Virus record (IMG/VR): IMGVR_UViG_3300045988_038276
Length of the DNA stretch: 40,757 nt
Strand: one strand, 5' to 3'
Source: a virus
Part shown: positions 1 to 40,757 of the stretch, one piece after another
How positions within the stretch are numbered: position 1 is the stretch's first letter
Layout: the number at the start of each line of letters is the position of its first letter
Position numbers and translations under genes: made by a program
The notes under the pieces: generated by a model
What the model was told of the DNA's origin: nothing
Seen by the model: the letters and a program-made list of their open reading frames with translations, nothing else
The model's database searches: none

Positions 1-141
1 AGGTCGTCCCTGATGTGCTGGTAGGTGTCCATGTCGCCCTGCTCCAGCGCCCGGTACAGAATGGCGTAATAGCGGTTCTTGTTGCCGGTATTGGAGATGT
101 TGTAGATAGCCTTTTCCATCTCATACTGGAGCGGAATGTTG
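1..141. repeat. Terminal overlap, identical to 40617-40757 (circular-contig signature)
   Basis: Read directly. Both copies start aggtcgtccctgatgtgctgg and end ctggagcggaatgttg. Confidence 0.95.
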
Positions 142-3100
142 TCGGTCTCCACCGCCGCGCTCCGGGCCAGGCCCCACATATCCCGCGTTAGGTTGGAGGC
201 CGGGATGCCGAACATCTTTGCACCGGCGGCCAGCAGTCCCTTGAGGGCGTAGGCCCCGGTCCGCTTGCCCTGGCCGTCGGCGCTCTGGATAGCCGTCTGT
301 CCGGCCTGGATAAGGTCGGACACGATCTCCATTTCCGTGCGGGACACGTCGTAGCCCTGCATGATGGACAGCGCGTCCTTCACGAAGGGGATTTGGCCCA
401 GGGGGTTCATGTTGCTGCCGACGTTGCCCTCCGTGATGGCGTTCCAGGCTTTCTCCCAGGGGGTCTCCTCGTCTCCGGTCACCCCGGTAAACGCCGTCCG
501 GAAGCGCTCCCAGTATTTTTTATCTTCGTCATCGTCGCGCATGGCGTCGATAAGGCTCTGGGCCAGAGCGTTGACCACGTTCGTCACCACCAGGGCCGTG
601 GCTGCCCGGCCCATCGTCTTGATGGCCTTGCCGCGCTTCTGGCTGTTCTGTTCGTAGCGCACTTGGTCATAGGCCCGCATCAGCAGGTTGAGGCTCATGA
701 TAGGCTCGCCCATGAAGCTGGTCGCCTGCTTCACCACCGCGTTGCTGGAACGCATGATGTTAGACCGCTGGAGCACGCCGTCTACCACCTGGGTCTGGTC
801 GATGACTTCCGCGAACAGCTTTGCCGTCTGCCGGTAGAACGCCTCGCTGCCCTTGGTGAGGCCCTGGTGTTCCCGCGCCGTGGCCCACTCGCAGGCGTTC
901 CACAGCTTGCCCCAGGTCACGGCGTCTGCCGCACCCGCAGGGGCGGAAAGGGCGTCGTTCAGCTTCCGCACGTTCGTCCGGTTGTCGAACAGCGTCTCGG
1001 TCATCTTGTAGGGGCTGGAGATGTCGAAGCCGCCCGCATCCTTCCGCATGGCGATGGGGGAGTATTGCAGGGCTTTCTTCCATCCGCTGCCCCGCGTAAC
1101 GCCTCTTGCAAGGCCCCGCGCCATGTCCTGGGGGTCCAGTACCGCCGCCGCCCGGAAGAACGCCGTGGGCTGCTGGATGACCACGCGGATGTTCGCGCCT
1201 ACGGCTGCGCCCTTGAAGCCGCCGATGGTCTTTCCGGCGATGTCCCACATGGGGCTGTCGCCGGGGGCGTTGATGCCGTTCTGGATGTCCTCCATCAGTC
1301 GGTTCCAGTATTCCTGGCTGCCAGGGCCGCCCACGCGGTCCAGCAGGCCCTTGATGCTCTTGCCGGTGGGGTTGCCCTCCTCGTCCCGGAACTGGTAGTT
1401 GAACAGGCGGTTGATGTCCTCCATCGTGCAGAGCCAGGAGGCATAGTCCGTCATGTCGGAGGCGTGGTTGGCAAAGGTGGTGAAGATGCCCGCCAGGTCC
1501 AGGGCGTTGCTCGCGTGGGGCATCGTGGTCTTTGCCATGCCGATGTTCTTAATGGAGCGGGTGTTGTTTCTGCCCTTTTCGATGTTGCTGTGCAGGCCCT
1601 CCTTGGCCGATTTGATGGGCCAGTAGTCGCTCTCGGTGAACTTCTTGTAACCGTAGGCTTCCATGCTGGCCTTGTTGCCGTAGTCGGCCAGCACGCCACG
1701 GGTCAGTCCTTGCAGGCCGTCCGCGATCTTCACCTGCTCCGGTGTCAGCGTCCCGGTGATGTTCACCAGGTCGCCCTCCGTCAGGCGGATGCTGTCCGTG
1801 CCGCGCCGGATTTGCGAGGTTTTGATCTCTGGCTGGACCACGCCGCCCTTGAGCAGGTGGTCGTGGGCCTGCTTGCGCTTCACCAGCTCGTACAGCTCCA
1901 TCACCTGGGCCGTGGAAAGGGTCAGTTTCTCGCCTCGCTCCGTGGTGAAGGTATGCGTGGTCGCCTCCAGCTTCTTCACCGTCTTGGGGTCCACGATCTT
2001 GCGGACCTCCTCGGCCACATGGTCCACCATGAGCTGCTGCTGGTCCTGCGCGTCCCGCAGCATCCGGTAGACCGCCTTGCCCGCCTCTCCGTAATGGGAG
2101 AAGAAGGTGTACGGGGTCTCCAGGTCAATGAGGGCGTGGTTGCGGGTCAGGCTGTTCTTGGCCCGGCGGCTGCTGGTCCCGATGGAGAGAGCCTGCGCCC
2201 AGTCCGCCGTCCTGGCGTACTTGGCCTTGGACAGGACTTTCCCCGCCGTGTTCACGCTGTGCTCCACGGCCTTGACCACCTGCCACACGGTTTGAAGCTG
2301 CGCCACGCTCATGTCGGCCAGCTTGGTGTCCTTCATGGCGATGACCGCATCAAAGCCGCCCTTGATGCCGTCGGCGTCGCTGCCCAGCAGGGAGGGGTCA
2401 ATGACCATATCCCCGCCCTCGGCCACGATTTTGGCATACTGCTCCTTGAGGGCGCGGAACGCCTCGGTCCGCTTGGTGGGGGTGCCGCTGCCGTCCTTCA
2501 CCCGCTTGCCGTTCTCGTCGAGGGTGTACTGGCTCTCCTGGTTGATGCTCTCCAGCATAGCGGCCACGCTTCCGCGCATGGCCTCCGGGATGTGGTGCTG
2601 GTCGCTGGGGCGGAGGAGCTTCTGGGACAGAGCGCTTGCATGGCGGGTGATTTTGGCTCGCAGCTCACGGGCCGCCCGGCGTTCCCGGCCCGCCGCGTCC
2701 TTGGCCGCATAGCGGTCTTTCAGAGCACCCATCTGCCGCTCGCGGGCCTCCCGCTCCTTGGCGATGGCGTTCTGTACCCGCTGCCGGTTCTGCTCCCGCA
2801 GTTCCGCCAGGCGGGTTGTGTACTGCTCCCGCACCTTCTGGACCTGCTCCCGGCCCTTGGCCTTGGCGTTCTCCAGCTTCAATGCCTGCCGGTCCGCAAA
2901 GGTCTTTCGCGTCTGGGGCAGGTCGAAGAAGGTCTCCATGATCTCGTTTGCTGCGCCGGTCACAGCCTGGTCCATGTAGCGGGAGAATGGGTTGTACTCG
3001 TTGATCTCGCTGATGCCGTCCAGCACTTCCACGATGTGGAGGAGCTGGTCCGTCGGATGGGTCTGTTCCTGCTCGCTGAAAAACTCCGGCCAGCGGGAGG

Positions 3101-6100
3101 AAAGCTCCTGGTACACCTGGTCGATGTTGGTGTGGCCCTCGCTGCCCAGGTTCAGCCGTCCGAACTGCCGCTTGCGGAAATCGCCATAGTCCGCGATGTC
3201 CCCGTGGTATTCCTTGCCGTAGATGATCTTGGTCGTCCGCAGGTAGTCCCGCAGGTCGCTGTACGCATCGTACATATCGCTGTCCACGGCCACCGCGTTG
3301 CTCACCAGGGTTTCCGCGATGTCCTCCGCCCGGCGACGGGCCTCGGTGTAGGTCAGCTCATCCTTGCCGTCGTAGCCGCTGGCGATGTAGTCATAGAGGC
3401 TCTGGAGGTCTCCCTGGATGTCCTTCACCGCGATGTCGGCCCCGTAGTTCTGGATAAGCTGTTTCGCGGCGGCGGTCACGGCCTTTTTGTCCGTGGTCAC
3501 GCGCTGGGTCCGCCGGGTCTGGCCCTGCCAGTAGTCCCGGCTCTCCTGGAGCTTCCCGTTTCGGCGCTGGATGGCGATATAGTCCTTCATCTGCTCCCGC
3601 AGCAGCCGGTTTTCCTCCTGCAAGGCGGCAACACTCTTGCTTTCCGTCCCGGCCTTGAGGGAGAAGCGGGCGTCGTCCACGCTGTTGATCTTGGCAAGGC
3701 GGTCCGCGTCGTCTCCGGTCTTGTATTCCAGCATCCGCACACCGGCCTGCTCCAAACCGTCCCGCAGCTTTTGGCTGCTGTCGTCAGGAATGACGGCGGC
3801 CAGCACCTCGTCAAAGCCGACGGCCCGCTGGGGCTTGGCCTCAAAGTAGCCGGTGGGCATTTCCGCCGCCGCCTGGTAGACGGCCTGGATGTCCTGGGCC
3901 GTCTGGCTGCTGATTTTGTACCCCTCCTTGGAGAAGGCCCGCATGATAGCGTCCACCGTCCTCTTTCCCTTGGACGTTTCCATCAGGATGCTGCCGATGA
4001 TGTCGCTCTCGACGAAGGAATTGTCGGAATGAGCCTTGTTTCCCTGCTTGATCTTCGTGATGATGCTGCCGATCTGGTCATCAATGGCCTGGAGCTTTGC
4101 TTCATACTCGGCCCCCTCGTCCATGCCCAGCCGCCCGCTGTCCGCCTTGATCTCCTGGATGCTGCGGTATTCCGGCGTCGCCACGGATTGCAGGGTCTTG
4201 GCGCTTGCGCCCCAGGTGTTGCCGCCGCGCTCCTCCTGGCCCTCCTTCATCGCCTTGACGATGTTCTCCAGGGTGTAGGCATAGTGGAGCTGCGAGAAGC
4301 TGCGGAGATTGCCGGAGGGGGTGTAGGGGTCCTTGCCATTGTAGATGCCCGCCTCGCCCAGCAGGCCGTCCAGCTTCCCGGCAATCCACTCCTCAACGGC
4401 GTGGTCATCCACGGCGCCGCGCAGCGCGTCAGAGGTAGCCATCCGGTCAATTTCGCCCTTGGTCGCGCCGCCGTCCTGGTACATATCCCATGCGTGGTGA
4501 ACGATGTCCTCCAGGGTGAAGATGGAAACGCCGTCCATGGAATTGTCGATGCGGGTCTGCCGTCTTTCGTTGATCTCCGCGTCGGTCCAATGCCTCTTGA
4601 CGGCCATTCTGCGGAGCATGGGTTCGCCCTGTTCCCGGTAGTAGTCCCGGAGAATGTCGCGGATGACCTCGGCATTCTCGCCCAGGGCGTCCTTCACGCT
4701 CTCGCCGGTCTCCAGGTTGGCCTCGATCTCAGCCAGCGTGTTCACGCCCAGGCGGTCAACCACCTTTTGCAGGGTGTCGTTACCGAACTTGTCCCACACC
4801 TTGTCCATCTTCACCGGCTCCAGGCTCTTGCCCTGGTCTGCCAGATAGGCCGCCCGCACCGTGTCTGTGGAGGCCAGCTTCTCCGCCAGTTCTGCCGTGC
4901 TCCTGGTGCTGGTGTCGTCGATGCCCACAGAGCGCAGGGCGGCGCTGTTCCCGAAGATGCCACCGGCCACGGAGACATCCCCGGCAAGCCGGTGTAGCTC
5001 GTGCTCCACCTGGGATGCCTTTTTGCTGTTCACGGGGTAATCTACTCGCGGAGCTGTCGGCGTCCAGGCATCGCCACCGTACACCTTGTTGGCGCGGAAT
5101 AGCTGCGGGTCGATGGTGTCCTTGCTGAACACAAGGGAGATGGGGCCGTACTTGGTGTGCCCGTCCCTGGCTTTTACAATGGCGATGGAGGGCATGGGCA
5201 GGCCGCCCAGCTTGATGGCAGCCAGGATGCTGTTCTCGTCCTTGTTATGCAGGGCCAGCAGCTTGTCCGTCTCCTCCACCGGGGTCTTGAGAGAGAATTT
5301 CGTCTCTTTCTGGTTGTCGGCCTTAAAGCGCTCGTGCAGCTCGCCCAACTCCTTGGCGTATGCGTCGAAGTCGTGGAACACATGGGCCGCAGGACCGTCC
5401 ACGAACATATCTGCTTTGCCCACCGCGATATGCCCGTACATCGTCGCGTTGAACTCGTCATAGAGGCGGGCCGGGTCTGCATTTTCCAGCGTGGTATGCT
5501 GATGCTCTGCCACATGGTTCAGCAGCACACGGGTCATCCCGTCGCTCATATTCAGCATCGTTGGCGTCCGTTCCACAAAGTCCAGGTAAGGCTTGTAGCC
5601 TACCTGCCGCATCACATGAGTGACCTCGTGGGGGGCAAACATCCCCCGATTCTTCTCCGGCAGGGTCTCCCGGAAGAAGATTTGCCCATCGGCAGAGAAC
5701 GCCGGGGTGCTGCCCTTGTTCTTGGCCCATGCCGCATCCGCCACAACAAAGCTCGGCACGCCGTAGTCCACCGCCGTCCGCTGCTCTGCGTAGGCCACGC
5801 TGCCCTTGGCCGGTTCCACCGTGTGGCCCTCCGCCCAGGAGCGCACGGGTTTGGCCCCGAAAGACGGGTTTACTCCTCCGTGTCGTCCAGAAGCAGCAGA
5901 AAGCTCTCTGCGAACTCGTCCATCTTGGCCTTTTCCTTCTCGGTCAGCGCTCTGCCCATATCCTTCTCGGCTGCCTGTGCCAGGTCTGCCGCCAGTTTCG
6001 CTTTCTTGTCCATCCTTGCCGTCCTCCTTCAAAGAATTTCTTGTTGCGGCCATTGTATCATTGCCGCCCTCTCCTTGCAAGGTCTTTGCCTGCCGGGCTG

Positions 6101-8585
6101 CCGCCTCCAAGGCTGCCGTCAGCTTCCCCTCGGCGGTCTGGGCCTTTTTCTTCTCGGCCCCAGTCAGCTTATCAATGAGGGAGCGGATAGCGTCCCGGAC
6201 CTTTTGCAGCAGCGTCCGGTCATCCCGGTGCCGCTCGATGAAGTCATCCAGCACCTTGCCGTCGTCAATGAGGCGGCCCGCATAGTCCGCCGCCACCTCG
6301 TCCATGGCCTGCTCATAGGTCAGCTCCACGCCCTGCGCGGCGTAGCTGTCGATGCGCTTCTGGATGCTGTCCTGCTCCTCCTGTGCCACGATGTCCCGGA
6401 ACGTCCGGTACTCCGTGGGGGCAAGCTCCTGCATCCGGTGGGTCATCTCGTGGCCCACAATAGCCAGTACAGGGTTTTCATTGTTCCGTTCCACCAGCAC
6501 CGTGCTGCCGCTGATCTGGGCATTGGCCGTTCCGCCGCGCACACTGTCCACGAACTGCACCCGCACGCCCAGGGCCTTGGCAACTCTGTTGACCTTGGCC
6601 GCCGTCTCGGCGGTCAGATAAACGCGGCTCTCACCGTTGGCATCCAGAATTGCGTGGCCCTGCTTGTCCTGCAACGGCCTGCCGCTCTCCACAGACTGCT
6701 TCACGAAGTCGTCATACACCAGGCCGCTGTCCGTCCCGGCCACCGGGGCATACTTGGCCGCCTGCTGCTCCCGCTGGAGGGAGAGGGCGGCGTCGTTCTG
6801 CCCGGCGGAATAGGCTGCAAAGCGCTGGGCCTGGGTCAGACTGCCGGAGTAGTCGCTGTCCACCGCCGCCATGTCTGCGCCGTTGATGCCTGCCTCGTAA
6901 TAAGAGGCGAAGCCTGCATAGTATTCGTCAGAGCGAATATTGCCGTCATAGCTGGCCGCCAGGGCCTTGGCCCCGTTTTCGCCCAGGGCGGAGGATGCGT
7001 CCCGCACGCGGCGGATGTCGTGGGCCTGCTGCGCCACCGGGCGCTGCGTGGCCGTCTGCTGCGTCTGCGGCGCGGCGGGGGTAGTTTCCTCCGTATTCAC
7101 GAAAATCTCCGTCTGTGCCCTTGCAAGGGTCTCCACGGCACTTTTCACGGCCTTGCGCTGCTGGCTCTTGGTCATGCCGTCCTGCACCACCTGGCCCGCT
7201 GCCTGCTTCAGGGCAGCCATAGCATCCTGGTCCGCCAGAATACGGTCCGCCGTCTTTCCGCTCACGCTCCCGTTCTGGCTTGCCTGTTCCGCCGCCTGGG
7301 TCAGCAGCTCATTGGCTGCCGTGGTCTGGGGGACCGCTTCTGCCTGCGGGGTTGGGGCGGTGGTCTCCTGCTGGGCGTTGGTTTCGCCCACGTTGTAGTG
7401 GTAGGTGGCCGGGGTGATAACGCCGCCCATCATACCGGAGGTCGCGCCCACAAGGAAATCATACAGAGAGTTCTCCAGCGTTTCCCCGGCGCTGGCTACG
7501 TCCCCGCCATAAATGCGGGGCATCTGCCACTCCATCCAGTCTCCGATGAACTCCTCCAGGCCCTCGCTCACCGCTCCGGCCCCGAAGGTCAGCGCACCGC
7601 CCAGCACACGCTTGCCCGCGTCCGTCTTTGCAAAGCGGTTCACGGCGGAGCGGATGCCCCGCTCCACGGCGTCGTCCAATGCGCCGCCGCCATAGGCATG
7701 GCTGAACGGCAGGGCGATATTGAACATCATCTCTGTAATTACTTCCTTTGCTGCCACGGCCCCGCCGTAAAGTCCCTGCTGCCCCAGAGTGGAGTTCGGG
7801 TTGTCCTGGCGGGCCTGCTGCGTAGCCCCGCCGAACGCACGCATGGCAAAAGCGCCCTTGCTGCCCGGCGTTCCCAGCAGGGCGTTGGCCGCTGTGTCGA
7901 GCGCTGTCTGGGTCATGGAAGCGCCTGCGTCCACCAGCACCTGGCCCACGCCGCCCAGCCCCTCCTTGGCCCGCTCAATGTCTTGGGCAGAGGACTGCTG
8001 GATGTCGTCCGCCAGCTCATAGCTGGCCTGGGTCGCTTTCTGCTGCACCTGCTCGTCCAGCACCTTTGCCATCGCGTCGTATTTCCGCTGCCAGTCGTCG
8101 ATGATGTACTGCTGGCTCTGGATGTCCCGCTCGTTCCAGCTTCCGGGCTTTTCCTTGTTTTCCGCCAGCATGGCGTCCATGTCCAGCTTGGCCCGCTCCA
8201 GGTTGTGGGAATATTCCGCCAGATACTCCCGGTTCTGCGCGTCGCGTCCGCCCTGGCCCATGGCGTAGAAGGTGCTCATGGCGTTGCTGTTGGAGGCCAG
8301 AGACCCCTTGGCCCCGCCTCGGATGGTGTCTCCCAGGCGGGAGAAGAAGCCCCGCTTCTCTGCGGGCTTTTCCGCCGTGGCCTGCGGCACGGCGGGCAGT
8401 TCGGCGTTTTCCCGTTTCAAGGTCAGCCCACCAGCCCGCCAGGTCTGCGTCCTCCCGGCGGAGGCGGTGGGCGGCGCAGTAGCCGGGGCGGTATTCGCCC
8501 CGGTCGTCTGCTTGTTCTCTTCCTGCTTTCTGCTGCCGCTGGTCCAGGTTTTCCCGGTCCCGGTCTGCTTTAAGGTCAAAGCCAT
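1..8585 (-). CDS. Giant virion/polyvalent-type protein: first 2861 codons of a 3063-codon ORF that leaves the window at base 1 and continues 40616->40010
   Basis: ATG 8583-8585 follows AAGGAGGGAGTAGATT. The minus frame (codon low coordinate 0 mod 3) was translated by eye with no stop seen, and no complete minus ORF in that frame is listed. It is absent from the track only because it lacks an in-window stop. Two HExxH motifs: HEMTH at 6438-6452 and HEVTH at 5616-5630. The plus ORFs 393-4997 and 5157-8573 are its antisense shadows. Confidence 0.8.
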   Translation of the reverse strand, partial: MALTLKQTGTGKTWTSGSRKQEENKQTTGANTAPATAPPTASAGRTQTWRAGGLTLKRENAELPAVPQATAEKPAEKRGFFSRLGDTIRGGAKGSLASNSNAMSTFYAMGQGGRDAQNREYLAEYSHNLERAKLDMDAMLAENKEKPGSWNERDIQSQQYIIDDWQRKYDAMAKVLDEQVQQKATQASYELADDIQQSSAQDIERAKEGLGGVGQVLVDAGASMTQTALDTAANALLGTPGSKGAFAMRAFGGATQQARQDNPNSTLGQQGLYGGAVAAKEVITEMMFNIALPFSHAYGGGALDDAVERGIRSAVNRFAKTDAGKRVLGGALTFGAGAVSEGLEEFIGDWMEWQMPRIYGGDVASAGETLENSLYDFLVGATSGMMGGVITPATYHYNVGETNAQQETTAPTPQAEAVPQTTAANELLTQAAEQASQNGSVSGKTADRILADQDAMAALKQAAGQVVQDGMTKSQQRKAVKSAVETLARAQTEIFVNTEETTPAAPQTQQTATQRPVAQQAHDIRRVRDASSALGENGAKALAASYDGNIRSDEYYAGFASYYEAGINGADMAAVDSDYSGSLTQAQRFAAYSAGQNDAALSLQREQQAAKYAPVAGTDSGLVYDDFVKQSVESGRPLQDKQGHAILDANGESRVYLTAETAAKVNRVAKALGVRVQFVDSVRGGTANAQISGSTVLVERNNENPVLAIVGHEMTHRMQELAPTEYRTFRDIVAQEEQDSIQKRIDSYAAQGVELTYEQAMDEVAADYAGRLIDDGKVLDDFIERHRDDRTLLQKVRDAIRSLIDKLTGAEKKKAQTAEGKLTAALEAAARQAKTLQGEGGNDTMAATRNSLKEDGKDGQESETGGRPGTGSREGYGQSADREGKGQDGRVRRELSAASGRHGGVNPSFGAKPVRSWAEGHTVEPAKGSVAYAEQRTAVDYGVPSFVVADAAWAKNKGSTPAFSADGQIFFRETLPEKNRGMFAPHEVTHVMRQVGYKPYLDFVERTPTMLNMSDGMTRVLLNHVAEHQHTTLENADPARLYDEFNATMYGHIAVGKADMFVDGPAAHVFHDFDAYAKELGELHERFKADNQKETKFSLKTPVEETDKLLALHNKDENSILAAIKLGGLPMPSIAIVKARDGHTKYGPISLVFSKDTIDPQLFRANKVYGGDAWTPTAPRVDYPVNSKKASQVEHELHRLAGDVSVAGGIFGNSAALRSVGIDDTSTRSTAELAEKLASTDTVRAAYLADQGKSLEPVKMDKVWDKFGNDTLQKVVDRLGVNTLAEIEANLETGESVKDALGENAEVIRDILRDYYREQGEPMLRRMAVKRHWTDAEINERRQTRIDNSMDGVSIFTLEDIVHHAWDMYQDGGATKGEIDRMATSDALRGAVDDHAVEEWIAGKLDGLLGEAGIYNGKDPYTPSGNLRSFSQLHYAYTLENIVKAMKEGQEERGGNTWGASAKTLQSVATPEYRSIQEIKADSGRLGMDEGAEYEAKLQAIDDQIGSIITKIKQGNKAHSDNSFVESDIIGSILMETSKGKRTVDAIMRAFSKEGYKISSQTAQDIQAVYQAAAEMPTGYFEAKPQRAVGFDEVLAAVIPDDSSQKLRDGLEQAGVRMLEYKTGDDADRLAKINSVDDARFSLKAGTESKSVAALQEENRLLREQMKDYIAIQRRNGKLQESRDYWQGQTRRTQRVTTDKKAVTAAAKQLIQNYGADIAVKDIQGDLQSLYDYIASGYDGKDELTYTEARRRAEDIAETLVSNAVAVDSDMYDAYSDLRDYLRTTKIIYGKEYHGDIADYGDFRKRQFGRLNLGSEGHTNIDQVYQELSSRWPEFFSEQEQTHPTDQLLHIVEVLDGISEINEYNPFSRYMDQAVTGAANEIMETFFDLPQTRKTFADRQALKLENAKAKGREQVQKVREQYTTRLAELREQNRQRVQNAIAKEREARERQMGALKDRYAAKDAAGRERRAARELRAKITRHASALSQKLLRPSDQHHIPEAMRGSVAAMLESINQESQYTLDENGKRVKDGSGTPTKRTEAFRALKEQYAKIVAEGGDMVIDPSLLGSDADGIKGGFDAVIAMKDTKLADMSVAQLQTVWQVVKAVEHSVNTAGKVLSKAKYARTADWAQALSIGTSSRRAKNSLTRNHALIDLETPYTFFSHYGEAGKAVYRMLRDAQDQQQLMVDHVAEEVRKIVDPKTVKKLEATTHTFTTERGEKLTLSTAQVMELYELVKRKQAHDHLLKGGVVQPEIKTSQIRRGTDSIRLTEGDLVNITGTLTPEQVKIADGLQGLTRGVLADYGNKASMEAYGYKKFTESDYWPIKSAKEGLHSNIEKGRNNTRSIKNIGMAKTTMPHASNALDLAGIFTTFANHASDMTDYASWLCTMEDINRLFNYQFRDEEGNPTGKSIKGLLDRVGGPGSQEYWNRLMEDIQNGINAPGDSPMWDIAGKTIGGFKGAAVGANIRVVIQQPTAFFRAAAVLDPQDMARGLARGVTRGSGWKKALQYSPIAMRKDAGGFDISSPYKMTETLFDNRTNVRKLNDALSAPAGAADAVTWGKLWNACEWATAREHQGLTKGSEAFYRQTAKLFAEVIDQTQVVDGVLQRSNIMRSSNAVVKQATSFMGEPIMSLNLLMRAYDQVRYEQNSQKRGKAIKTMGRAATALVVTNVVNALAQSLIDAMRDDDEDKKYWERFRTAFTGVTGDEETPWEKAWNAITEGNVGSNMNPLGQIPFVKDALSIMQGYDVSRTEMEIVSDLIQAGQTAIQSADGQGKRTGAYALKGLLAAGAKMFGIPASNLTRDMWGLARSAAVETDNIPLQYEMEKAIYNISNTGNKNRYYAILYRALEQGDMDTYQHIRDD
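5870..6013 (-). CDS. Embedded 47-codon alternative-frame ORF (MDKKAKLAADLAQAAEKDMGRALTEKEKAKMDEFAESFLLLLDDTEE)
   Basis: ATG 6011-6013 sits 8 nt after GAAGGAGGA, and the stop TAA is at 5870-5872. G/C-ending codons dominate as in the rest of the genome, whereas the giant-ORF frame turns A/T-ending and low-complexity here. Confidence 0.3.
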   Translation of the reverse strand: MDKKAKLAADLAQAAEKDMGRALTEKEKAKMDEFAESFLLLLDDTEE

Positions 8586-8599
8586 AATCTACTCCCTCC

Positions 8600-10108
8600 T
8601 TACGAAAGGTCAAAACCGAACAGCTTAAACTTACGCTTGAGCGTTGCCAGTTCGCTGTCGGTGAGGCCCGCCTGGCTGATTTCATTAAGAAGCTGTTCCA
8701 CGCTGGAATAGTTGCGCCCGTTCCAGGTGAAGATGCCCTCGTCCTGGTCCCAGTCCAGGCTCGTCTTTCCACCGCTGCCGCTGCCCTTGCCGCCCTGGTT
8801 CTTCATCCAGTCGGCGTAATACCCGGCCAGCTTTCCGGCCTGGGTGGTGTTGTACCCGGCGGACAGCAGCCAGGCGTATGCGTCGCCCTCGCTGCGGATG
8901 CCCGCCTTGTACATTCCTGCGTACACGTCCTCGCTGGCGCTTGAGCCGCCCCTCTTGCTTCCGCCGGAGCTGCCGCCTCTGGAGGACCCGCCGCCGGAGC
9001 GGGCGGATGCCTGCGCCTTGTTGTATGCGCTCTTGAGGCCCGCGATCTCCTGGTCCGTGTACCCCAGGGCCTTGTAGCCGGAGAAGTCGCCGCCCGCCGC
9101 GAGGGTCTGGGCCTTTGCCAGCGCCCGGTTGTACTCCGTCTCGTCCTTGTAGGTCTCCCGGTTGTAGGCGGTCTCGTCCTCGTAGCGCTTGTCCGCGATC
9201 TGGTCCCGGCCCACGGAATAGTTCCACTCGTTGTTGTAGCGCTCGTCGCTGATATTGTCCCGATGCACGCCGTAGTCGAAGCTCCGGTCCGTGTTGTACT
9301 GGGCCAGGAGGTCGGCGTACTTGGCGTAGTCCCCCTGCTCCAGGGCCACCAGCATTTCCAGGTTTGCCCTCTGGGTGTTGCCCTCGTCCTGGTACATGGA
9401 GTAGGCAAGCTGTTTCAGCTCCGGGATTTTATCGGCAAGCGCCCCCATGTAGTTGTCATAGGTCTGCTGCGCTGCGCTGCCCGCATAGCTGCTTGCAAGG
9501 CCGCCCGTGCGGGCGCTGACCTGCCCCAGGGTGTCCTGCATCGCCCGCTCGCCGCTGCGCGTGTAGCTCTCCTTGTACTGCTGATAGGTGGGGTCCTTCT
9601 CCGGGTCGTAGCTGAACGCCTCCCGGTTAAGGATTTGGCGGGTTAGGTCGTCGATCTGGTTCTGGTAGCGGCTGGTGTAGGTGGGGGCCGCCTCGTAGGA
9701 GAAACCGCCGCCTCCGTTTCCTCGTCCGCCGCCGCCCATCTCCAGGGGAATGTAGCGGCTGCCGTCGCTGTCGCCGGAATAGCCGTAGTTGCTGCGGATG
9801 CGCTCCACATAGTCGTGGGCGTCTGCCCAGGTCGTTTTGCCTGCCGCCGCTGCCGCCCGGACCTCCGCCGCGCTCCGCAGCTCGTCATTGGAAAAATGCT
9901 CCTGGTCATATACGCTGCCGCCGTAGCTGCCCCGGTCGCTGCCGCCGCCCACCGTGTCGGCGCTGGGCGCGGCGGCCTTGCCGGTCTTGCTTCCGGTCTT
10001 GATGGCGCTGGTGGCATAGCCGTTCTCGTTATAGCTGATGTTGTAGCCGCCCTTGGAGACGGTCTTGCCCGCCAGGTCTTTGTTCCTGGACATATCGGGT
10101 TTTGCCAT
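8600..10108 (-). CDS. Structural protein of unknown function, Gly/Ser/Tyr-rich, 502 aa
   Basis: ORF track. RBS AGAGGAGG precedes the ATG. It lies in the tail/virion module and carries repeated D-x-x-Y-N-R-like motifs. Confidence 0.6.
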   Translation of the reverse strand: MAKPDMSRNKDLAGKTVSKGGYNISYNENGYATSAIKTGSKTGKAAAPSADTVGGGSDRGSYGGSVYDQEHFSNDELRSAAEVRAAAAAGKTTWADAHDYVERIRSNYGYSGDSDGSRYIPLEMGGGGRGNGGGGFSYEAAPTYTSRYQNQIDDLTRQILNREAFSYDPEKDPTYQQYKESYTRSGERAMQDTLGQVSARTGGLASSYAGSAAQQTYDNYMGALADKIPELKQLAYSMYQDEGNTQRANLEMLVALEQGDYAKYADLLAQYNTDRSFDYGVHRDNISDERYNNEWNYSVGRDQIADKRYEDETAYNRETYKDETEYNRALAKAQTLAAGGDFSGYKALGYTDQEIAGLKSAYNKAQASARSGGGSSRGGSSGGSKRGGSSASEDVYAGMYKAGIRSEGDAYAWLLSAGYNTTQAGKLAGYYADWMKNQGGKGSGSGGKTSLDWDQDEGIFTWNGRNYSSVEQLLNEISQAGLTDSELATLKRKFKLFGFDLS

Positions 10109-10431: not shown

Positions 10432-12258
10432 TTAATATTCGCTGCCCAGGGCGAACTCCCGGATGATGCTCTTGACCAGGCATCCGCCCTTGCCGGACAG
10501 CCGGATGCGGAAGTTGTCGCACCGCACCGGCAGGATGGGGACTTGCAGGGTCTTGGCCCGCTCGTTGTGGGTGGAGAACACCTGTCGGAATGGCTTTCCG
10601 TCCGTGCTGATCTCCACCTTGAGCCAGGCCCCGGCCTCCAGGTCCGCCCGCAGGTACAGCTTGGAATAGCACTTGCGCCCGTGGCTCGTCTCGTCCATCT
10701 GGCACAGCGTTGCGCTCCAGTTCACCAGGCCCTCCTCGGAGTAGTCCTGCCCGGTGGTCATCAGCTTGCCCGTGGCCCCGTCCAGGAAGTAGAGCGTCCC
10801 GTCCAGATAGGCCCAGTCCAGCGCGTGGGTCGCGTCCTCCCGCAGCCAGATGGCCCGCAGCGTATCAAAGACGTACAGCTCCCAGTCGCCCTTCTCCGTC
10901 CGCATGGAGATGTAGTAGCGCTCGCCGTCCGTGCCGCCCACCGCGTCGAAGAAGCGCCGGGTCCCGAAGTTCTCCGTCAGCAGCTCCGGGGTCCCGCCGG
11001 AGTAGGCGTACACGCCGTTGCGGCCCTTGTAGAACAGCGTCTCGTTGATGACGGCCAGGGACTTCTCGCTGCCCTTCTGGATGCCGGGCACCGTGTAGGT
11101 GTAGATTTCATACTGCGCCGGATAGCTGCCCAGGACCTTGTGCAGGCAATTCTCTTTCCAGAACAGCACCGTGCTGGAGTAGGCGATGCACCCGGTGAAC
11201 TCGCCCTCCGTGCCCACGGCCACGGCGTAGCTGTCCGTGGACACCCCGTCGTAGACGTAGAAGTTGGTCGGGTCGCCCAGGGCGCTGGCGTAGATGGTCT
11301 TGCCCTCCGCGCCCCAGATGCGGTTATCGCACTCGCAGATGCACGTCAGGTCCGGCACCTTCCGCTCCAGCATCACCGTCCCGGCCTCCACGCCGGTCTT
11401 GGTGAAGATGCCCTTGGTGAAGGTCAGCTTCCGCGCCTCCAGGGAGCGGATGATGTGGCTGCCATTGTTCGCGGCGCAGGTCGTACAGCCGGAGATTTCG
11501 ATTGCGTCTCCGGCCTTGAAAAGCTCGTCGAAGCCTGGGTATTTGTGCAGCGCCGCCGTGTGCAGCAGATAGGTGATCTGGTAGGTCCCGTCGCTCTGCT
11601 TTGCGCTGCTCTGTACCACCATGTACTCCTTGGAGCTGTCGCAGTCGTATTGAATGTAATCGCCCGCCTTGAGCTTGTCCGGGGTCCCTGCGGTCCCGCC
11701 GCTCATAGTCAGCGCTCCCGTGGTCTTGTTCACGCTGGCCCCGGTGTAGGCGGTGATGGATGTGTCGGCGGCCACGCTGCCCTTGGTCTCTGCGTTTTCC
11801 GCCGCCTGGTCGATGTAGCTCTGCTCCGGCACGGTCAGGGTGTTGGTCGTGAAGGTCACGTCGCCGGGGAAGCCGGGGTATTCCGCAGCCAGCATCCCAA
11901 ACTTCTCCGCCTCCGTGTCGTAGTAGACCTTATCGGGGAAAATGACGATTTTGGTGTTGATGGTGGCAAACTGCTTTTCGCCCGCAGTCACATGGCCCAC
12001 CACCTTGCCGTCATAGAGAAAGTCGGTCCCGTCCACCACGCACAGCTTCCCCCGTGCGTACAGCCCCGTGGGGCTGGTGTAGGTCCCGGCGGTCTTGCGC
12101 CCGTCCCGCTGACTGAGGCACGGGAAGCGGGCGGAGGAGAGGCCCCAACTCTCTGCCAGTTCGCCGTCTCCGGCTCCCTGGCCGTAGTTCAGCCCGGCAA
12201 AGGCGATGATTTGCTTGCGGTTCTTGCCGGTCGCCGCCGTCATGTATGGCAGGTTCAT
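10432..12258 (-). CDS. Large tail/baseplate-like structural protein, 608 aa
   Basis: ORF track. RBS AGGAGGAGGGG. Position in the structural module. No recognisable enzymatic motif. Confidence 0.6.
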   Translation of the reverse strand: MNLPYMTAATGKNRKQIIAFAGLNYGQGAGDGELAESWGLSSARFPCLSQRDGRKTAGTYTSPTGLYARGKLCVVDGTDFLYDGKVVGHVTAGEKQFATINTKIVIFPDKVYYDTEAEKFGMLAAEYPGFPGDVTFTTNTLTVPEQSYIDQAAENAETKGSVAADTSITAYTGASVNKTTGALTMSGGTAGTPDKLKAGDYIQYDCDSSKEYMVVQSSAKQSDGTYQITYLLHTAALHKYPGFDELFKAGDAIEISGCTTCAANNGSHIIRSLEARKLTFTKGIFTKTGVEAGTVMLERKVPDLTCICECDNRIWGAEGKTIYASALGDPTNFYVYDGVSTDSYAVAVGTEGEFTGCIAYSSTVLFWKENCLHKVLGSYPAQYEIYTYTVPGIQKGSEKSLAVINETLFYKGRNGVYAYSGGTPELLTENFGTRRFFDAVGGTDGERYYISMRTEKGDWELYVFDTLRAIWLREDATHALDWAYLDGTLYFLDGATGKLMTTGQDYSEEGLVNWSATLCQMDETSHGRKCYSKLYLRADLEAGAWLKVEISTDGKPFRQVFSTHNERAKTLQVPILPVRCDNFRIRLSGKGGCLVKSIIREFALGSEY

Positions 12259-12829: not shown

Positions 12830-13531
12830 TTACACCGCGCGGACCCACAGGCCGTTGTTCTTCACATACAGCCCGCCGTCGTTGCCCGGCACGCTCTCAA
12901 CCGTGTAGCATCCATCGCTGTCTGTGCTGTCAGATACAACGATAGAAGATTTAAGATTAAAAGCGGGGCGCGGCGCGAAGTTGGCGTAGTACACGCGGTC
13001 GCGGCTCACGGTGCCGTCGGTGTAGATGCTGCACGCGTTGCTGTCATTCGAGTACGGGGAGCGCAGGCCCCAGCCGACGGCGGTCGCCGTCTCGTCCAGA
13101 TAGGCGATGCGCTTTGCGTTGTCGGAGAAATAGCTGAACGCCTTGCCCTCCGTCTGCCAGCCGCTCACGCCCGCCTCCGTGCAGGAGAGGGCAAAGCCCT
13201 TGCGGTAGATCGTGTGCAGCGTCGCCACCTGGTTGCCCTCCGCCACCACAATGGGGACGGGGACCAGGCACTCCCGGATTTTCTCGTCCAGTTTCAGCGG
13301 CCAGATGCCGTCACAGAAGTTGTCCAGCAGGCAGCCGATATATCGGTTCTTGTAGCTGCTGTCGTAGCTGGCCTCCCATTGGCGCTCATTAAAGGTGTCC
13401 TTGCGGATAAGGGTCACGCCCGTGCCGGTGCCGTAGTGGTCATTGTCCAGCTTGATGAACTTGGTGGGCTTGCTGTTTTCCGCCAGCTTCACCAGGCTGC
13501 CGTTTGCCAGATTGGAAAGTAACTGTCCCAT
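12830..13531 (-). CDS. DGR target protein 1 (likely receptor-binding protein), variable region near the C-terminus
   Basis: ORF track. RBS AAAGGAGAA. The C-terminal sequence GWGLRSPYSNDSNACSIYTDGTVSRDRVYYANFAPRPA is encoded by VR1. Confidence 0.85.
   Translation of the reverse strand: MGQLLSNLANGSLVKLAENSKPTKFIKLDNDHYGTGTGVTLIRKDTFNERQWEASYDSSYKNRYIGCLLDNFCDGIWPLKLDEKIRECLVPVPIVVAEGNQVATLHTIYRKGFALSCTEAGVSGWQTEGKAFSYFSDNAKRIAYLDETATAVGWGLRSPYSNDSNACSIYTDGTVSRDRVYYANFAPRPAFNLKSSIVVSDSTDSDGCYTVESVPGNDGGLYVKNNGLWVRAV
12962..13082 (-). repeat. DGR variable region VR1
   Basis: A 121-nt alignment to the TR (14925-15045) has 14 mismatches. Every one is at a T of the TR on the given strand, which is an A on the coding strand. 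Confidence 0.9.
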
Positions 13532-14696
13532 ATCGTTTTGTTCTCCTTTCGTCAGGTCCGGGCCGGGCAGCGGGGATGCCCGCCGCCCGCCTGGCCTCGT
13601 CTGCGCGGTCCAGAGCCATCAACAACCTGGACCGCATTTCTCTGCGGAGCTGCTTTGTGTCGCCGTGTTTGGCGTGTGCCTCCCAGGCGGTAAAGCTCTC
13701 CATGATTTTCTCCCGCGACACCTCGCCCGCCGCGTACTGCTTCTCCCACAGCCGGATGCGTCGTTTCATCCGCTTGATGGAGGAGTAGCGCAGCTTGCTG
13801 ACCACCTGGCCCGTCCGGGTCAGATAGGTGTGGAAGCCGCAGAAGTCGATGCCGTTTTGCAAGGGGAAGATGTTGGTCTTGTCGTTCAGCTCCAGGCCCA
13901 GCTTGGCAAATTCAAGCCTTGCAAGGCGCAGAGCCTCAACCGCTGTCGCCTTATCCGGGCAGATCACATACCAGTCGTCCATATACATCCCTGCCAGCGG
14001 CAGGTGCAGCTTCTCACCCACATAGTGCATGAAGGAGCTGACGTAGAACACCGCGTAGATGTGGCTCGTCTGGTGTCCCAGGGCCAGGCCCTCGTCCACG
14101 GCGTCGATGTATCGCCACATCAGCGCCCGGATGTCCGGGTCGGGAAACCGGGGTTCCAGCGCGGCCTTGAGCCGCCGGTGGTCGATGCTCTGGAAGAAGT
14201 GGCGGATGTCGCCCTTGATGACCCAGCCCTCGGCGTAGTCCCATTCCTCCATGGGCCGGTGGGGCAGACCGGCGGCCTTGCGTGCTGCCTCGTCCGCGCC
14301 CTTCCGCCGCAGGAAATAGGTCCTCATGTGCTGTTTCAGCATCTCCAGCCCGTAATGGGTCCCCTTGCCGTACTGGGCCGCGTAGGTGTTCAGCGTGAAG
14401 CTCCGGGCCAGCTCGTCGTAGACGATGTAATCCGTGAGCGCGTGCTGCACCACCTTGTCCCGGAACGTCGGGGCCTGGATAAGCCGCTTCTTGGGTTCGT
14501 AGATATAGAACGCGTCCAGCGGGTCCGGCTGGTGCGTCCCTTGCAAAAGCGATTTTGAGAGTATCAGCAGCTCCTCGATTGCGCTGTACTCAAAGGGTGC
14601 CGTACTCTTTTTGCCCCTCTTGCACCGTCTGGCCCGGTGGTAGGCCGTCCATAGGGTGTCAAAGGAGCACAGTTCCTGATAGGTCATATCACACAT
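13440..14696 (-). CDS. DGR-type reverse transcriptase
   Basis: YMDD catalytic motif. LGHQTSH occupies the position of the DGR [IVL]GxxxSQ motif. It sits next to the TR and Avd. The likely start is MTYQEL at 14687. The 3' end overlaps the target-1 start by 92 nt. Confidence 0.9.
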   Translation of the reverse strand: MCDMTYQELCSFDTLWTAYHRARRCKRGKKSTAPFEYSAIEELLILSKSLLQGTHQPDPLDAFYIYEPKKRLIQAPTFRDKVVQHALTDYIVYDELARSFTLNTYAAQYGKGTHYGLEMLKQHMRTYFLRRKGADEAARKAAGLPHRPMEEWDYAEGWVIKGDIRHFFQSIDHRRLKAALEPRFPDPDIRALMWRYIDAVDEGLALGHQTSHIYAVFYVSSFMHYVGEKLHLPLAGMYMDDWYVICPDKATAVEALRLARLEFAKLGLELNDKTNIFPLQNGIDFCGFHTYLTRTGQVVSKLRYSSIKRMKRRIRLWEKQYAAGEVSREKIMESFTAWEAHAKHGDTKQLRREMRSRLLMALDRADEARRAAGIPAARPGPDERRTKRYGTVTFQSGKRQPGEAGGKQQAHQVHQAGQ

Positions 14697-14924
14697 CCTT
14701 GCTTGGTTTTCGGATGGTGGAGCGCAGGTCCGGCATCGCTGATAGCGGCCAGTATCTCCCTCCGCCGGAGGTGTCCGGGGCTTTCCCCGGTAGCGAGCCT
14801 GGCAGCGTCGGTGCCATGTGTTTATCCCCCGTGTTCATGTCCACGGACGACGGGATATAGCCTCCTTTGATGATGGGCCTCTGCTTTCGCCGCAAGGGCT
14901 ACTTGTACGCGGTAATTCCATCAG

Positions 14925-15045
14925 AGCGGGGCGCGGCGCGAAGTTGGCGTTGTACACGTTGTTGTTGTTCACGGTGCCGTCGGTGTTGATGTTGTACGCG
15001 TTGTTGTCATTCGAGTTCGGGGAGCGCAGGCCCCAGTTGACGGCG
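14925..15045 (-). repeat. DGR template repeat (TR)
   Basis: The coding-strand sense reads AVNWGLRSPNSNDNNAYNINTDGTVNNNNVYNANFAPRPA, with 12 AAC codons. It matches VR1 and VR2 except at adenines. About 230 nt of non-coding spacer separate it from the RT. Confidence 0.9.
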
Positions 15046-18374: not shown

Positions 18375-19424
18375 TTAGCTGTTGAAGGTGGAGCAGGTCT
18401 CGATGCGGACCATGTACGCCTCCACCAGGCGCTCGGCCACCTTGGTGGCTTTCCAGCCTGCGGTGGCGCGCTGGTCCAGAGGGTCGGCAGTACCGGCAGA
18501 GCCGAGCTGCTTCACGATGTGCTGGAGACCGCCGCCGGTGATCTCGGTCACACCGTAGGCGTCCGCACCCAGAATGAGGGTGGAGTACACGTCGCGCTGG
18601 TTGGCAGTCGCCGTGCCGGTCTCACAGTTCTTGCCCGCATGGGTAAAGACCTTGGCCTCGCTGGTCTCCACGAAGCGGACGCCCTCGATGCGTCCGATCT
18701 CGCCCTCGTAGATGCCGTCGGGGTCGGAGTAGGTCTTGACGTTCACCCACTTGGGGTCACTCATAAGGTCGTAGGAGCAATCCGGGTGGATGATGCCCGC
18801 GTAGTAGCCGTTGATCTTGGGCGCGTTCATCACCTTGAGGTAACGGACAGCGCGGCGCACGGCGTCCACGGTCAGGTAGTGGTTCTCGCTGTCGGTCTTG
18901 CTGCCGCCGCACAGGTTGGCGCGGCTGTCCACCTGGCCCTCGGCGTACTGCACGTTGGTGCCGCCGTTCAGTACCTCACGGGTGATGGTGTCCAGGGTGC
19001 GGCCCGCCTGGCTGCCCAGCAGCTTGGTGGCCTGCACCAGGTTGTTGTCGATGGCGGAAAGCAGCAGCATATCGGACAGCTCGATGAAGCCGCCGTACTG
19101 CGCCACAGTCGCGGTGATGACGCCCATGTTGAGCTTCTGACCTTCGGGGGTCACACCTTCGGTCAGGGCCGTGGTGGCCTTGGGCAGGGGGTCATACTTG
19201 CGGAACTCAATGGTCTTACCGCCATTCTTGGGGATGGGGTGCTTCTGTCCGAACTGGTCATGGACCAGCAGCGGCTCCGCCATATCAATGAGATAGTCGG
19301 AGTAGAAGGTTTTCATCTCGCCGGAAAGGTCGTTCCCGGTGGTTGCGCTGGTCGTCTTGTTGATGACTGCATTAAACAGGTTCAGCACGACGGGCAGCAG
19401 AATGAATTTGCGGATGGTGTTCAT
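18375..19424 (-). CDS. Major capsid protein, N4-gp56-like HK97 fold
   Basis: Motifs KTIEFRKY, LTEGVTPEG and ITATVAQYGGFIELSD are recalled from the N4-type capsid family. It follows the scaffold gene. Confidence 0.8.
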   Translation of the reverse strand: MNTIRKFILLPVVLNLFNAVINKTTSATTGNDLSGEMKTFYSDYLIDMAEPLLVHDQFGQKHPIPKNGGKTIEFRKYDPLPKATTALTEGVTPEGQKLNMGVITATVAQYGGFIELSDMLLLSAIDNNLVQATKLLGSQAGRTLDTITREVLNGGTNVQYAEGQVDSRANLCGGSKTDSENHYLTVDAVRRAVRYLKVMNAPKINGYYAGIIHPDCSYDLMSDPKWVNVKTYSDPDGIYEGEIGRIEGVRFVETSEAKVFTHAGKNCETGTATANQRDVYSTLILGADAYGVTEITGGGLQHIVKQLGSAGTADPLDQRATAGWKATKVAERLVEAYMVRIETCSTFNS

Positions 19425-36859: not shown

Positions 36860-36899
36860 AGGAAAACCTCCATTTGCAATACTTTTGCATAGCATTTGT

Positions 36900-40009: not shown

Positions 40010-40757
40010 TTACCATTCGCTGGTGTAGACGGTCCCCCAGAGGAAAGCCCGCTGCTCGTCGGTCAGGCCGGAGAAGTCCTCCAGCCATTCCCGCACATGG
40101 TCGCTCTTGGCCTCGCCCTTCACGGTCTTGCCGTCTGCGTCCTTGGTCCCTTCCATCTCGTTGTAGGCGGTGTGGAACAGGACGTACTCCCAGGGTTCGA
40201 TGCCCTGGGCCTCTGCGTCGTCGGCCTGGGCCATCCACTTGGTGCCGACCTCGTACTGTCCGTCGGAATGGTCCGCCAGGGCGCTCTTGTCGGCCAGATC
40301 ATAGGCCGCCTTGAGCACCTTGTCGCGGGTCTCGTCGTCCATTCCCCGGAAAATAGGGCTGCTCGTCAGGTCGTCTGCCATGCTGCGGTAGTCGCTGGCC
40401 CGCTGGTCGGAGTATGCCTGGTAGGCGCTGCTGCCCAGGTCGTCCGCGCCGAAGGTTTCCTCCTTCTCCTTGGCCGGGGCGTATTTGTCCCGGCTGCCGA
40501 TAAGGTCCCGCGCCCTCTGGGGCAGGGTGTAGTCCGGGTCCTTCTCAACGGCCTTGTTGTAGCGGCTCCGCATGGCGCTGTCGATGCTTGCGCCGTCCAC
40601 GCCCATGCTGTTCATCAGGTCGTCCCTGATGTGCTGGTAGGTGTCCATGTCGCCCTGCTCCAGCGCCCGGTACAGAATGGCGTAATAGCGGTTCTTGTTG
40701 CCGGTATTGGAGATGTTGTAGATAGCCTTTTCCATCTCATACTGGAGCGGAATGTTG
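40010..40757 (-). CDS. C-terminal end of the giant 3063-codon ORF; the last 141 nt duplicate bases 1-141
   Basis: Track ORF 40010-40735 begins at an internal Met (MEKAIYNISNTG). The same frame stays open upstream across the junction into 1-8585. Confidence 0.8.
   Translation of the reverse strand, partial: NIPLQYEMEKAIYNISNTGNKNRYYAILYRALEQGDMDTYQHIRDDLMNSMGVDGASIDSAMRSRYNKAVEKDPDYTLPQRARDLIGSRDKYAPAKEKEETFGADDLGSSAYQAYSDQRASDYRSMADDLTSSPIFRGMDDETRDKVLKAAYDLADKSALADHSDGQYEVGTKWMAQADDAEAQGIEPWEYVLFHTAYNEMEGTKDADGKTVKGEAKSDHVREWLEDFSGLTDEQRAFLWGTVYTSEW
40617..40757. repeat. Terminal overlap, identical to 1-141
   Basis: Read directly. Confidence 0.95.

Follow-up and report, generated by a model that had tools for sequence, protein, structure and literature searches.

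Phage-type polyvalent proteins, described as a class by Iyer, Burroughs, Anand, de Souza and Aravind in 2017 (PMC5512222), are regarded as the earliest phage weapons to reach the cell interior, and their packaging, their cutting and the sites of the cuts have been matters of prediction since that year. Autoproteolysis by their metallopeptidase (MPTase) domains was proposed generally by the same authors (PMC5512222). In the podovirus N4 the ejected virion RNA polymerase (vRNAP) gp50, a protein of ~3,500 amino acids (aa), comprises an N-terminal domain, a cargo enzyme, an HExxH subdomain (C1) and a ~1,100-aa, mostly helical C2 without structural homologue (PMC13434306). The polyvalent protein gp47 (2,811 aa) of the temperate podovirus and Shiga toxin (Stx) phage phi24B is abundant in virions by mass spectrometry, is invisible in cryo-electron microscopy and has been proposed to be a capsid-packaged ejection protein (bioRxiv 10.64898/2026.04.10.717836). 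A further point of reference is the cargo of extracellular contractile injection systems (eCIS) that carries DUF4157/eCIS_core, such as AlgoCIS Cgo1 and Cgo2, in which a disordered N-terminus, an HExxH DUF4157 domain and a variable effector are loaded together into a phage-tail-like injection particle. Here we describe the giant gene of IMG/VR virus record IMGVR_UViG_3300045988_038276, a stretch of 40,757 nucleotides (nt) referred to below as the window (position 1 is its first letter). Its product is a phage-type polyvalent protein in which a conserved chassis carries exchangeable cassettes, with a short peptide motif at their borders; chassis, cassettes and border motif are additions to the first reading of the gene.

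The giant open reading frame (ORF) crosses the ends of the contig. Bases 1-141 are identical to bases 40617-40757, so that the unique circular unit is 40,616 bp; the duplication is most likely the overlap of a k=141 assembler rather than a biological terminal repeat, as one related contig bears a k141_... name, which corresponds to the usual 141-nt overlap left by MEGAHIT on circular contigs. On the minus strand the frame runs from an ATG at 8583-8585 to base 1 and continues from base 40616 to a stop at 40010-40012 (translation table 11), giving 3,063 aa and 9,192 nt including the stop, or 22.6% of the genome, with codon 2862 straddling bases 2-1 and base 40616. The segments concerned are:

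1..8585, minus strand: codons 1-2861 of the giant ORF (exact translation; third-codon-position GC 0.84; ribosome-binding site)
40010..40616, minus strand: codons 2862-3063 and stop (40010-40012), the C-terminal tail of the C-module (translation; P0094 alignment over the junction)
40617..40757, no strand: assembler overlap, a copy of bases 1-141 with no extra sequence (exact identity; k141-named relatives)

A frame of 3,063 codons is beyond chance: when the 8.6-kb stretch was shuffled 200 times, the longest open frame had 211 codons on average and 348 at most. GC at codon positions 1/2/3 is 0.63/0.43/0.84 in the giant gene and 0.57/0.41/0.87 in the capsid gene, and a ribosome-binding AAGGAGG stands 9 nt 5' of the ATG. 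The sequence-only reading had described a minus-strand frame of 3063 codons and 9192 nt (~23% of the genome) across the junction, with HExxH motifs at about aa 712 and 986; exact translation agrees with the extent, encounters no in-frame stop and finds both motifs at those positions. That the junction might be a misassembly is contradicted by uninterrupted copies elsewhere. A protein of 3,063 aa from other assemblies (P0094) aligns over its full length, gap-free and at 96.8% identity, with 119 of 121 residues identical over the junction (aa 2800-2920), and the gene is intact both in a 90.6-kb contig with the prophage integrated beside host genes (L001) and in a 452-kb Oscillospiraceae genome contig (L008). 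Two long plus-strand ORFs lie antisense to the giant gene, at 393-4997 (1,534 aa) and 5157-8573 (1,138 aa). Their codon-position GC is mirrored (position 1 high, position 3 lower), which in a genome of 63% GC marks them as artefacts opposite a coding strand.

From N- to C-terminus the protein consists of a variable N-terminus, a zincin-like module (Zn1), a disordered linker, a second zincin-like module (Zn2), a PBECR5 cassette and a helical C-module of ~1,400 aa:

7038..8585, minus strand: N-terminal region, aa 1-516, Ala/Gly/Gln-rich and variable (aa 80-410 common to 10/149 representatives)
6054..7037, minus strand: Zn1, zincin-like module, aa 517-844 (conserved residues; AlphaFold2 (AF2) topology)
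6027..6041, minus strand: junction motif 1, R-N-S-L-K, aa 849-853, inside a disordered, strain-hypervariable linker at aa ~845-915 (predicted local distance difference test (pLDDT) 28-37)
5301..5825, minus strand: Zn2, cassette-type zincin-like module, aa 921-1095 (hhalign to Zn1; sub-threshold eCIS_core)
5286..5300, minus strand: junction motif 2, K-F-S-L-K, aa 1096-1100 (coil between two confident domains)
3669..5285, minus strand: PBECR5 effector cassette, aa 1101-1639, a predicted BECR-fold RNase with a co-conserved extension of ~335 aa (Pfam PF18814)
3654..3668, minus strand: junction motif 3, R-F-S-L-K, aa 1640-1644, directly before the C-module (strain recombination breakpoint)
3..3653, minus strand: C-module, aa 1645-2861, continuing in 40010-40616, nearly all alpha-helical (cluster search; AF2)

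A search with aa 1662-2861 against 1.84 billion cluster representatives (50% identity clusters) matched 4,501 clusters at E<=1e-3, 2,939 of them at E<=1e-30, and in the best 150 matches the module forms the C-terminal part of proteins of 917-4,205 aa. When the whole giant protein was compared with the best 149 representatives of this search, the C-module (aa ~1650-3063) was found in nearly all of them (the C-terminal tail in 133) and the Zn1 region (aa ~500-830) in 100-111 by BLAST and 125 by hidden Markov model (HMM). The PBECR5 block (aa ~1100-1640) was present in about 26-28 and the Zn2 region (aa ~900-1095) in 7-19, and in minimal members of ~2,200 aa Zn1 is joined straight to the C-module. 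This wide sharing of Zn1 and C-module and sparse sharing of Zn2 and PBECR5 describes a chassis with a slot for a varying number of cassettes: Zn1 (aa ~517-844) and the C-module (aa 1645-3063) are the conserved chassis, and Zn2 and PBECR5 are exchangeable cassettes.

PBECR5 is the only significant Pfam match, with PF18814 matching aa 1094-1304 at E=1e-64 and 218.8 bits (cut-off 25) over profile positions 1-207 of 239; Pfam defines this domain from polyvalent proteins. The whole PBECR5 block is common to giant proteins of phages Ab9, Carin1 and BF1-TP2. Closer to the window, a profile search whose matches were mostly near-identical strains yielded cassette variants of 2,453 to 3,343 aa, in which C-modules are 80-99% identical and the cargo differs, being PBECR5, PBECR5 with an ADP-ribosyltransferase (ART) domain, ART alone, MuF_C, or nothing that Pfam recognises. 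In pairwise maps of the strains identity rises from 47% or less, or from unalignable sequence, to 74-94% at aa 1630-1641, the RFSLK junction, and in a 3,239-aa variant (P0077) an ART-PolyVal cassette is inserted exactly between two RFSLK copies. Another variant (P0121) is without the Zn2 module, one lacks aa 929-1534, and others have aa 1-415 replaced. Such patterns indicate that cassette swapping occurs even among near-identical strains. Among wider relatives the cassettes fall into 24 clusters, the largest of them Zn2-like and others LPD3 or methyltransferase, most being without any match.

The border motif was recognised as FSLK, the 4-mer that recurs most often within single proteins of the family. 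Its general form, [FY]S[LIMV][KR], occurs 293 times in the 149 representatives compared with 51±9 in shuffles, and has the extended consensus D-[IAV]-[RK]-[FY]-S-L-K-[DEG]. Nearly all copies (286/293) precede the C-module or coincide with its start, 90 of them within 50 residues of that point, and seven are inside the module. The contrast recurs in a separate set of 38 genome loci, with 57 motifs upstream where 5.9 were expected, and with 7 observed and 7.0 expected within the C-module. The motif is enriched about 6-10-fold and confined to the variable region; its count grows with the length of that region (rho=0.61), its copies tend to be ~170-250 or ~510-545 residues apart, distances of domain size, and a relaxed form, xS[LIR][KR], occupies most junctions without a strict motif. 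In the giant protein all three junction motifs are coil and form the lowest-confidence AF2 stretches between folded domains, and Ser1642 is at least 90% conserved among 50 diverged homologues. Copies of the motif differ in codons, so the peptide is what selection keeps. The same differences led us to reject a DNA-level recombination signal, and the absence of the motif from all other proteins of this phage led us to reject a general prohead-protease site. Nor is the motif a general feature of polyvalent proteins, being absent from Carin1 gp32, N4 gp50 and a distant Lachnospiraceae branch and largely absent from phi24B gp47. A 41.9-kb contig from a Rikenellaceae metagenome-assembled genome (MAG) bin (L017) encodes a family member with six strict motifs after its Zn domain, at 956, 1159, 1354, 1551, 1749 and 1893; the near-regular spacing would correspond to five cassettes of about 145-200 aa.

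Zn1 is the candidate protease of the chassis. Its HExxH motif, LAIVGHEMTHRMQE, lies at aa 712-716 (nt 6438-6452) and is followed by E763 (nt 6297-6299), and H712, E713, H716 and E763 are each at least 90% conserved in the 50 diverged homologues; two histidines, a catalytic glutamate and a downstream glutamate make up the gluzincin pattern. In Zn2 the motif FAPHEVTHVMRQ (HEVTH) occupies aa 986-990 (nt 5616-5630), and a D-E pair at aa 1043-1044 aligns to Zn1 and offers E1044 as putative third ligand. Aligned by hhalign, the two modules match at E=8.6e-5 over the strand region, the HExxH and the D-E pair, and iterated HMMs seeded with either converge on the same domains. Zn1 and Zn2 are, by these profile comparisons, mutually homologous and zincin-like, each with a conserved downstream glutamate. 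An AF2 model of aa 462-1661 (mean pLDDT 77.9, high within domains) predicts for Zn1 one helix (aa 659-672), three strands, the HExxH helix (aa 705-721), inserted helices and the E763 helix (aa 757-774), an order of secondary structure consistent with the zincin core described by Iyer et al., and the same order for Zn2. Differences between P0094 and the giant protein cluster at aa ~800-1100 (window ~5300-6190), with 30, 11 and 9 per 100 aa compared with 0-6 elsewhere; this hypervariable part is the disordered, Gly/Glu/Arg-rich linker behind Zn1 together with Zn2.

For the C-module no Pfam or NCBIfam model and no solved structural relative was found. Its AF2 model, built on an alignment of 41 sequences, has a pLDDT of 77 and a predicted template modelling score of 0.61, and includes a predicted long helix of ~77 residues at aa ~1915-1991 (window ~2610-2840), which may be a single helix or a coiled coil. 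A 48-aa in-frame insertion resembling a local duplication lies in this helix in 3,123-aa as compared with 3,075-aa variants. Foldseek against PDB returned no relative (best E 0.12), and against BFVD 80 matches at E<=1e-3. Nearly all of the 50 BFVD matches listed are C-terminal chunks of giant proteins of uncultured phages, and their names reflect other domains (nuclease, MuF-C, PolyVal ART, LPD, type I restriction enzyme, acetyltransferase). Residues ~2087-2692 align by hhalign with the C-terminus of Carin1 gp32 (68.5% probability, E=4.6e-5, 564 columns; reversed control E=0.24). In one faecal-phage homologue fragment the C-module is followed by an M23-like peptidase sequence, recognised by eye from its motifs, which hints at a cell-wall role. 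The module has many invariant polar residues, and its conserved motifs GNEASMxVYGYxKFTE, IQQPTA, TWGxLWNACE, QTQVVDGVLQRS and RDDDxDKxYWER suggest a specific activity or interface.

The sequence-only reading had called the product a polyvalent-type protein and named LPD, ART, RNA polymerase (RNAP) and lytic domains among those to look for. The class assignment is borne out: PBECR5 and two zincin-like modules are joined in one 3,063-aa polypeptide, ART-PolyVal and MuF_C occur in sister strains, and the gene belongs to the structural block of a portal-terminase phage, in virion-gene context. Whole-protein and per-segment Pfam scans (E<=10) of this strain found PBECR5 and a weak eCIS_core and no LPD, ART, RNAP, lytic or MuF domain. 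Searches of the giant protein against NCBIfam and, with single sequence and profile, against PDB sequences gave no match, and no strongly hydrophobic membrane-spanning segments were found in it. Full length, it matches phrog_22978 (2,782 bits), a PHROG to which no function is assigned, with aa 1653-2861 on positions 2061-3218 of 3513 and the C-terminal 248 aa on positions 3174-3434; among 50,697 GenBank phage records tblastn picked up nothing beyond uncultured faecal fragments and, in three isolates, the PBECR5 block, and thus no characterised close relative. Three other identities were rejected: a MuF/SPP1 gp7 fusion (no Phage_Mu_F match at E<=10 in the whole protein or its segments), an N4-like RNAP (no RNAP family in the Pfam scans, E>=0.018 in comparisons with gp50) and a T7 gp16-type core protein (no lytic domain, no PDB fold match for aa 1662-2861).

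Every scanned gene of the window lies on the minus strand, and the main features are as follows:

23483-24925, minus strand: TerL (gene scan)
20969-22978, minus strand: portal (gene scan)
18375-19424, minus strand: capsid protein (matches Pfam Phage_capsid_3/4 only)
14925-15045, minus strand: template repeat of a diversity-generating retroelement (DGR)
13440-14696, minus strand: DGR reverse transcriptase gene
12962-13082, minus strand: DGR variable repeat, inside the DUF6273 gene (12830-13531)
10432..12258, minus strand: 608-aa protein, phrog_511 'internal virion protein' (syntenic in 26 related loci)
8600..10108, minus strand: upstream partner, a 502-aa ORF called at 477-503 aa in relatives (5' of the giant gene in 32 related loci)
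35819-36895, minus strand: IS30-like DDE integrase (HTH_38 and rve), no tyrosine or serine recombinase

A 371-aa protein without assignment stands between the portal and capsid genes. The capsid gene is followed by collagen-like fibre proteins, the DGR, the 608-aa protein, a 96-aa coiled-coil protein, the 502-aa protein, for which Pfam, NCBIfam and PDB searches gave no match, and the giant gene; 3' of the latter come a lower-GC stretch, a holin and an amidase, and then the integrase. The giant gene is the last of the structural block and stands just before the lysis genes, and its description as the end of the structural operon is upheld by TerL, portal, capsid, fibres and phrog_511 upstream. 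Upheld too is the description of a phage without tail tube or tape measure, no such genes having been found among those scanned, and no recognisable nozzle or adaptor genes were found among them either. In some relatives of Lachnospiraceae type the giant gene has the portal gene on one side and the capsid gene on the other. Four loci from Oscillospiraceae or uncultured Clostridia MAGs (L060, L061, L068, L070) have the order TerL, portal, 502-aa homologue, giant gene, capsid, 608-aa homologue, which puts the giant gene in the usual slot of minor head or scaffold genes.

The phage is temperate, appears to lack a tail tube and has a gut Oscillospiraceae host. A segment of the C-module has a 98%-identical copy in the genome of Oscillospiraceae bacterium CM710M_45, apparently a cultured isolate, and the host taxa of family members include Oscillibacter, Flavonifractor, Lawsonibacter, Ruminococcaceae and Lachnospiraceae; two MAG records with family members are labelled Rikenellaceae and Akkermansia. 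In L001 (22714-29372) the prophage end adjoins host mnmG/gidA, a cyclase and ornithine carbamoyltransferase. A Tad2-like (anti-Thoeris, PF11195) gene lies between giant gene and holin in L001 (20685-21137) and in another locus, L076 (14163-14615); it was not found in the window, where 38.4-40.0 kb (GC 54.5%) holds other small ORFs without Pfam match. The DGR is complete (12830-15045, minus strand). Its repeats of 121 nt are 88% identical, and all mismatches in the aligned core fall at template A, the signature of adenine mutagenesis.

The best explanation of these observations, to which we give a probability of roughly 55%, is a polyvalent carrier with a cargo slot that is packaged in the capsid, injected and processed by Zn1 at the SLK junctions. 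The giant protein would be made late with the structural proteins, packed inside the capsid and expelled into the Oscillospiraceae host with the DNA. Zn1 would act as a metalloprotease in cis and make its cuts at the SLK junctions or close to them, either within the capsid or once inside the host, and the cuts would release effectors from the C-module, which may serve packaging and/or passage through the envelope. The effectors (an RNase here, an ADP-ribosyltransferase or MuF-C nuclease in sister strains) would disarm defence or take over the host. We infer packaging and ejection from the gene position, from the portal-to-capsid position in relatives, from the presence of phi24B gp47 in virions and from N4 gp50, and cleavage in cis from the autoproteolysis proposal of Iyer et al. 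combined with a conserved candidate protease and a recurrent, accessible, family-specific site. A role of the C-module in packaging or as a conduit is likewise conjectural. That the whole is a self-processing 'cargo rack', in which Zn1 cuts [FY]S-L-K and frees strain-specific effectors and the C-module is a new fold acting as capsid anchor and in envelope passage, we put forward tentatively and consider on balance doubtful.

Several observations weigh against the proposed carrier, beginning with the indirect nature of the case for packaging, ejection and cleavage. Motif and protease are not strictly coupled: distant Lachnospiraceae-type members keep the Zn domain and lack the strict motif, one locus (L028) has five strict motifs and no Zn-domain match, and representatives without detected Zn1 average 1.7 motifs compared with 2.1 in the rest. 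Zn1 has no Pfam or NCBIfam match in the giant protein or in the scanned homologue segments, a PDB profile search returned neither a zincin nor any other structure, and Foldseek of the AF2 model (aa 462-1661) against PDB found no match at E<0.1, a search weakened by the 1,200-residue multidomain query. Zn2 scores 14.2-16.7 bits against Pfam eCIS_core/DUF4157 (PF13699), below the gathering threshold (22 bits). Among the aligned Zn2-type relatives the best match has E=4.9e-5, so the module is related to eCIS_core without being filed as a member. HExxH domains can also be non-proteolytic, as in alpha-ketoglutarate HExxH hydroxylases.

Some of these points would be accommodated if the polyvalent virion protein were delivered intact, its HExxH modules acting on host targets or in loading or refolding, and FSLK serving as a domain-capping or linker element and a shuffling joint. 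Packaging without processing is reported for N4 vRNAP, another protein with an HExxH domain, ArdC and TraC1 are transferred as full-length proteins, and DUF4157 is dispensable for the loading of eCIS cargo, its role being unresolved in the literature; the strain recombination breakpoints fall on the motif, and the distant members with a Zn domain do without its strict form. We nevertheless consider intact delivery unlikely. The motif is kept as a peptide with different codons, contrary to a DNA-level recombination signal; it sits in disordered linkers rather than capping a fold and is enriched only where cassettes occur, and family members conserve both the catalytic glutamate of HExxH and the third ligand.

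An alternative that is compatible with the carrier, and as an account in its own right improbable, makes the C-module part of a tail or ejection conduit with a T7 gp16-like role and the enzymatic modules add-ons. It would fit the lack of recognised nozzle, adaptor and tape-measure genes among those scanned, the remote homology between the C-module and the Carin1 gp32 C-terminus and the relative that ends in an M23-like sequence. The giant gene of Carin1 and Ab9 moreover follows small internal-virion-protein genes and one for a lysozyme-bearing protein, which in the T7 gene order is the slot of gp16. A conduit role was also proposed for gp47 by the authors of the phi24B study (10.64898/2026.04.10.717836). 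No solved core or ejection protein resembles the C-module in structure, however, and the giant protein is without strongly hydrophobic membrane-spanning segments. Very improbable is an unpackaged late toxin or anti-defence factor, intracellular or released, acting in the producer or on competitors. In its favour, packaging is deduced indirectly, Pfam scans turned up neither a MuF nor a portal-binding domain, and gut Oscillospiraceae widely carry the prophage. Against it, the gene sits within the structural operon and keeps its synteny with structural genes, neither a signal peptide nor a secretion domain was noticed (no search was aimed at either), and analogous polyvalent proteins are virion-associated.

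With more than 4,500 clusters at 50% identity, and members in 68 representative species genomes that are nearly all from gut Clostridia, the family is very large. What is new here is the definition of a large unannotated chassis family, the swapping of its cargo at strain level and a punctuation motif; neither Iyer 2017 (PMC5512222) nor the rest of the literature searched mentions the fixed chassis-plus-slot layout or the [FY]SLK motif. Motif and residues H712, E713, H716 and E763 make the old autoproteolysis hypothesis precise and checkable, and the C-module copy in the apparent isolate CM710M_45 makes the packaging question testable. If the cargo-rack reading is true, effector injection by thousands of phages of gut Clostridia would rest on a universal delivery chassis and a defined cleavage code. 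A defined chassis with a slot for cargo would also lend itself as a natural scaffold to the engineering of protein delivery by phages of hard-to-target gut anaerobes.

Compared with the class of Iyer et al., the giant protein is likewise a single giant polypeptide of a portal-terminase phage, encoded among virion genes. It shares with the class the zincin-like HExxH, a hub domain there, and a predicted PBECR RNase, with ART and MuF-C in sister strains, as well as the cassette mosaicism of close relatives and predicted autoproteolysis. It differs in that its ~1,400-aa C-module and Zn1 match no Pfam LPD or metallopeptidase model. The order C1 to C2 of N4 gp50 is that of Zn1 to C-module in minimal family members, whereas gp50 has an RNAP domain, which the giant protein lacks, and is without the FSLK motif; HMM and hhalign comparisons of Zn1 and C-module with C1 and C2 gave no homology (E>=0.018). 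The PDB copy used for the fold searches probably predates the N4 structure. With eCIS cargo the family has in common Zn2-type modules that match Pfam eCIS_core (sub-threshold in this protein), whereas eCIS cargo consists of separate small proteins with one effector each.

The nearest relatives in cultured phages are gp32 of the marine podovirus Cobetia phage Carin1 (2,854 aa) and a protein of the podovirus Acinetobacter phage Ab9 (2,839 aa), both annotated as hypothetical in GenBank. They share the PBECR5 block (aa ~1092-1641), and the C-terminus of Carin1 gp32 is remotely homologous to the C-module; their genes are preceded by a nozzle or tail gene, by genes for small internal virion proteins and by one for a lysozyme-bearing protein. 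Their identity to the giant protein is ~23% or lower, and they differ from it in having no FSLK motifs and a single HExxH of another type. phi24B gp47 belongs to a phage of a Gram-negative host and differs in its accessory LPD1, LPD5 and LPD38 domains, in having no detected C-module and in a lone YSLR without enrichment. Like the giant protein it has two HExxH modules, weakly detected by the Zn1 and Zn2 HMMs (i-Evalues 5e-5 and 7e-6, on a single sequence), and it is the best experimentally supported analogue of the protein described here.

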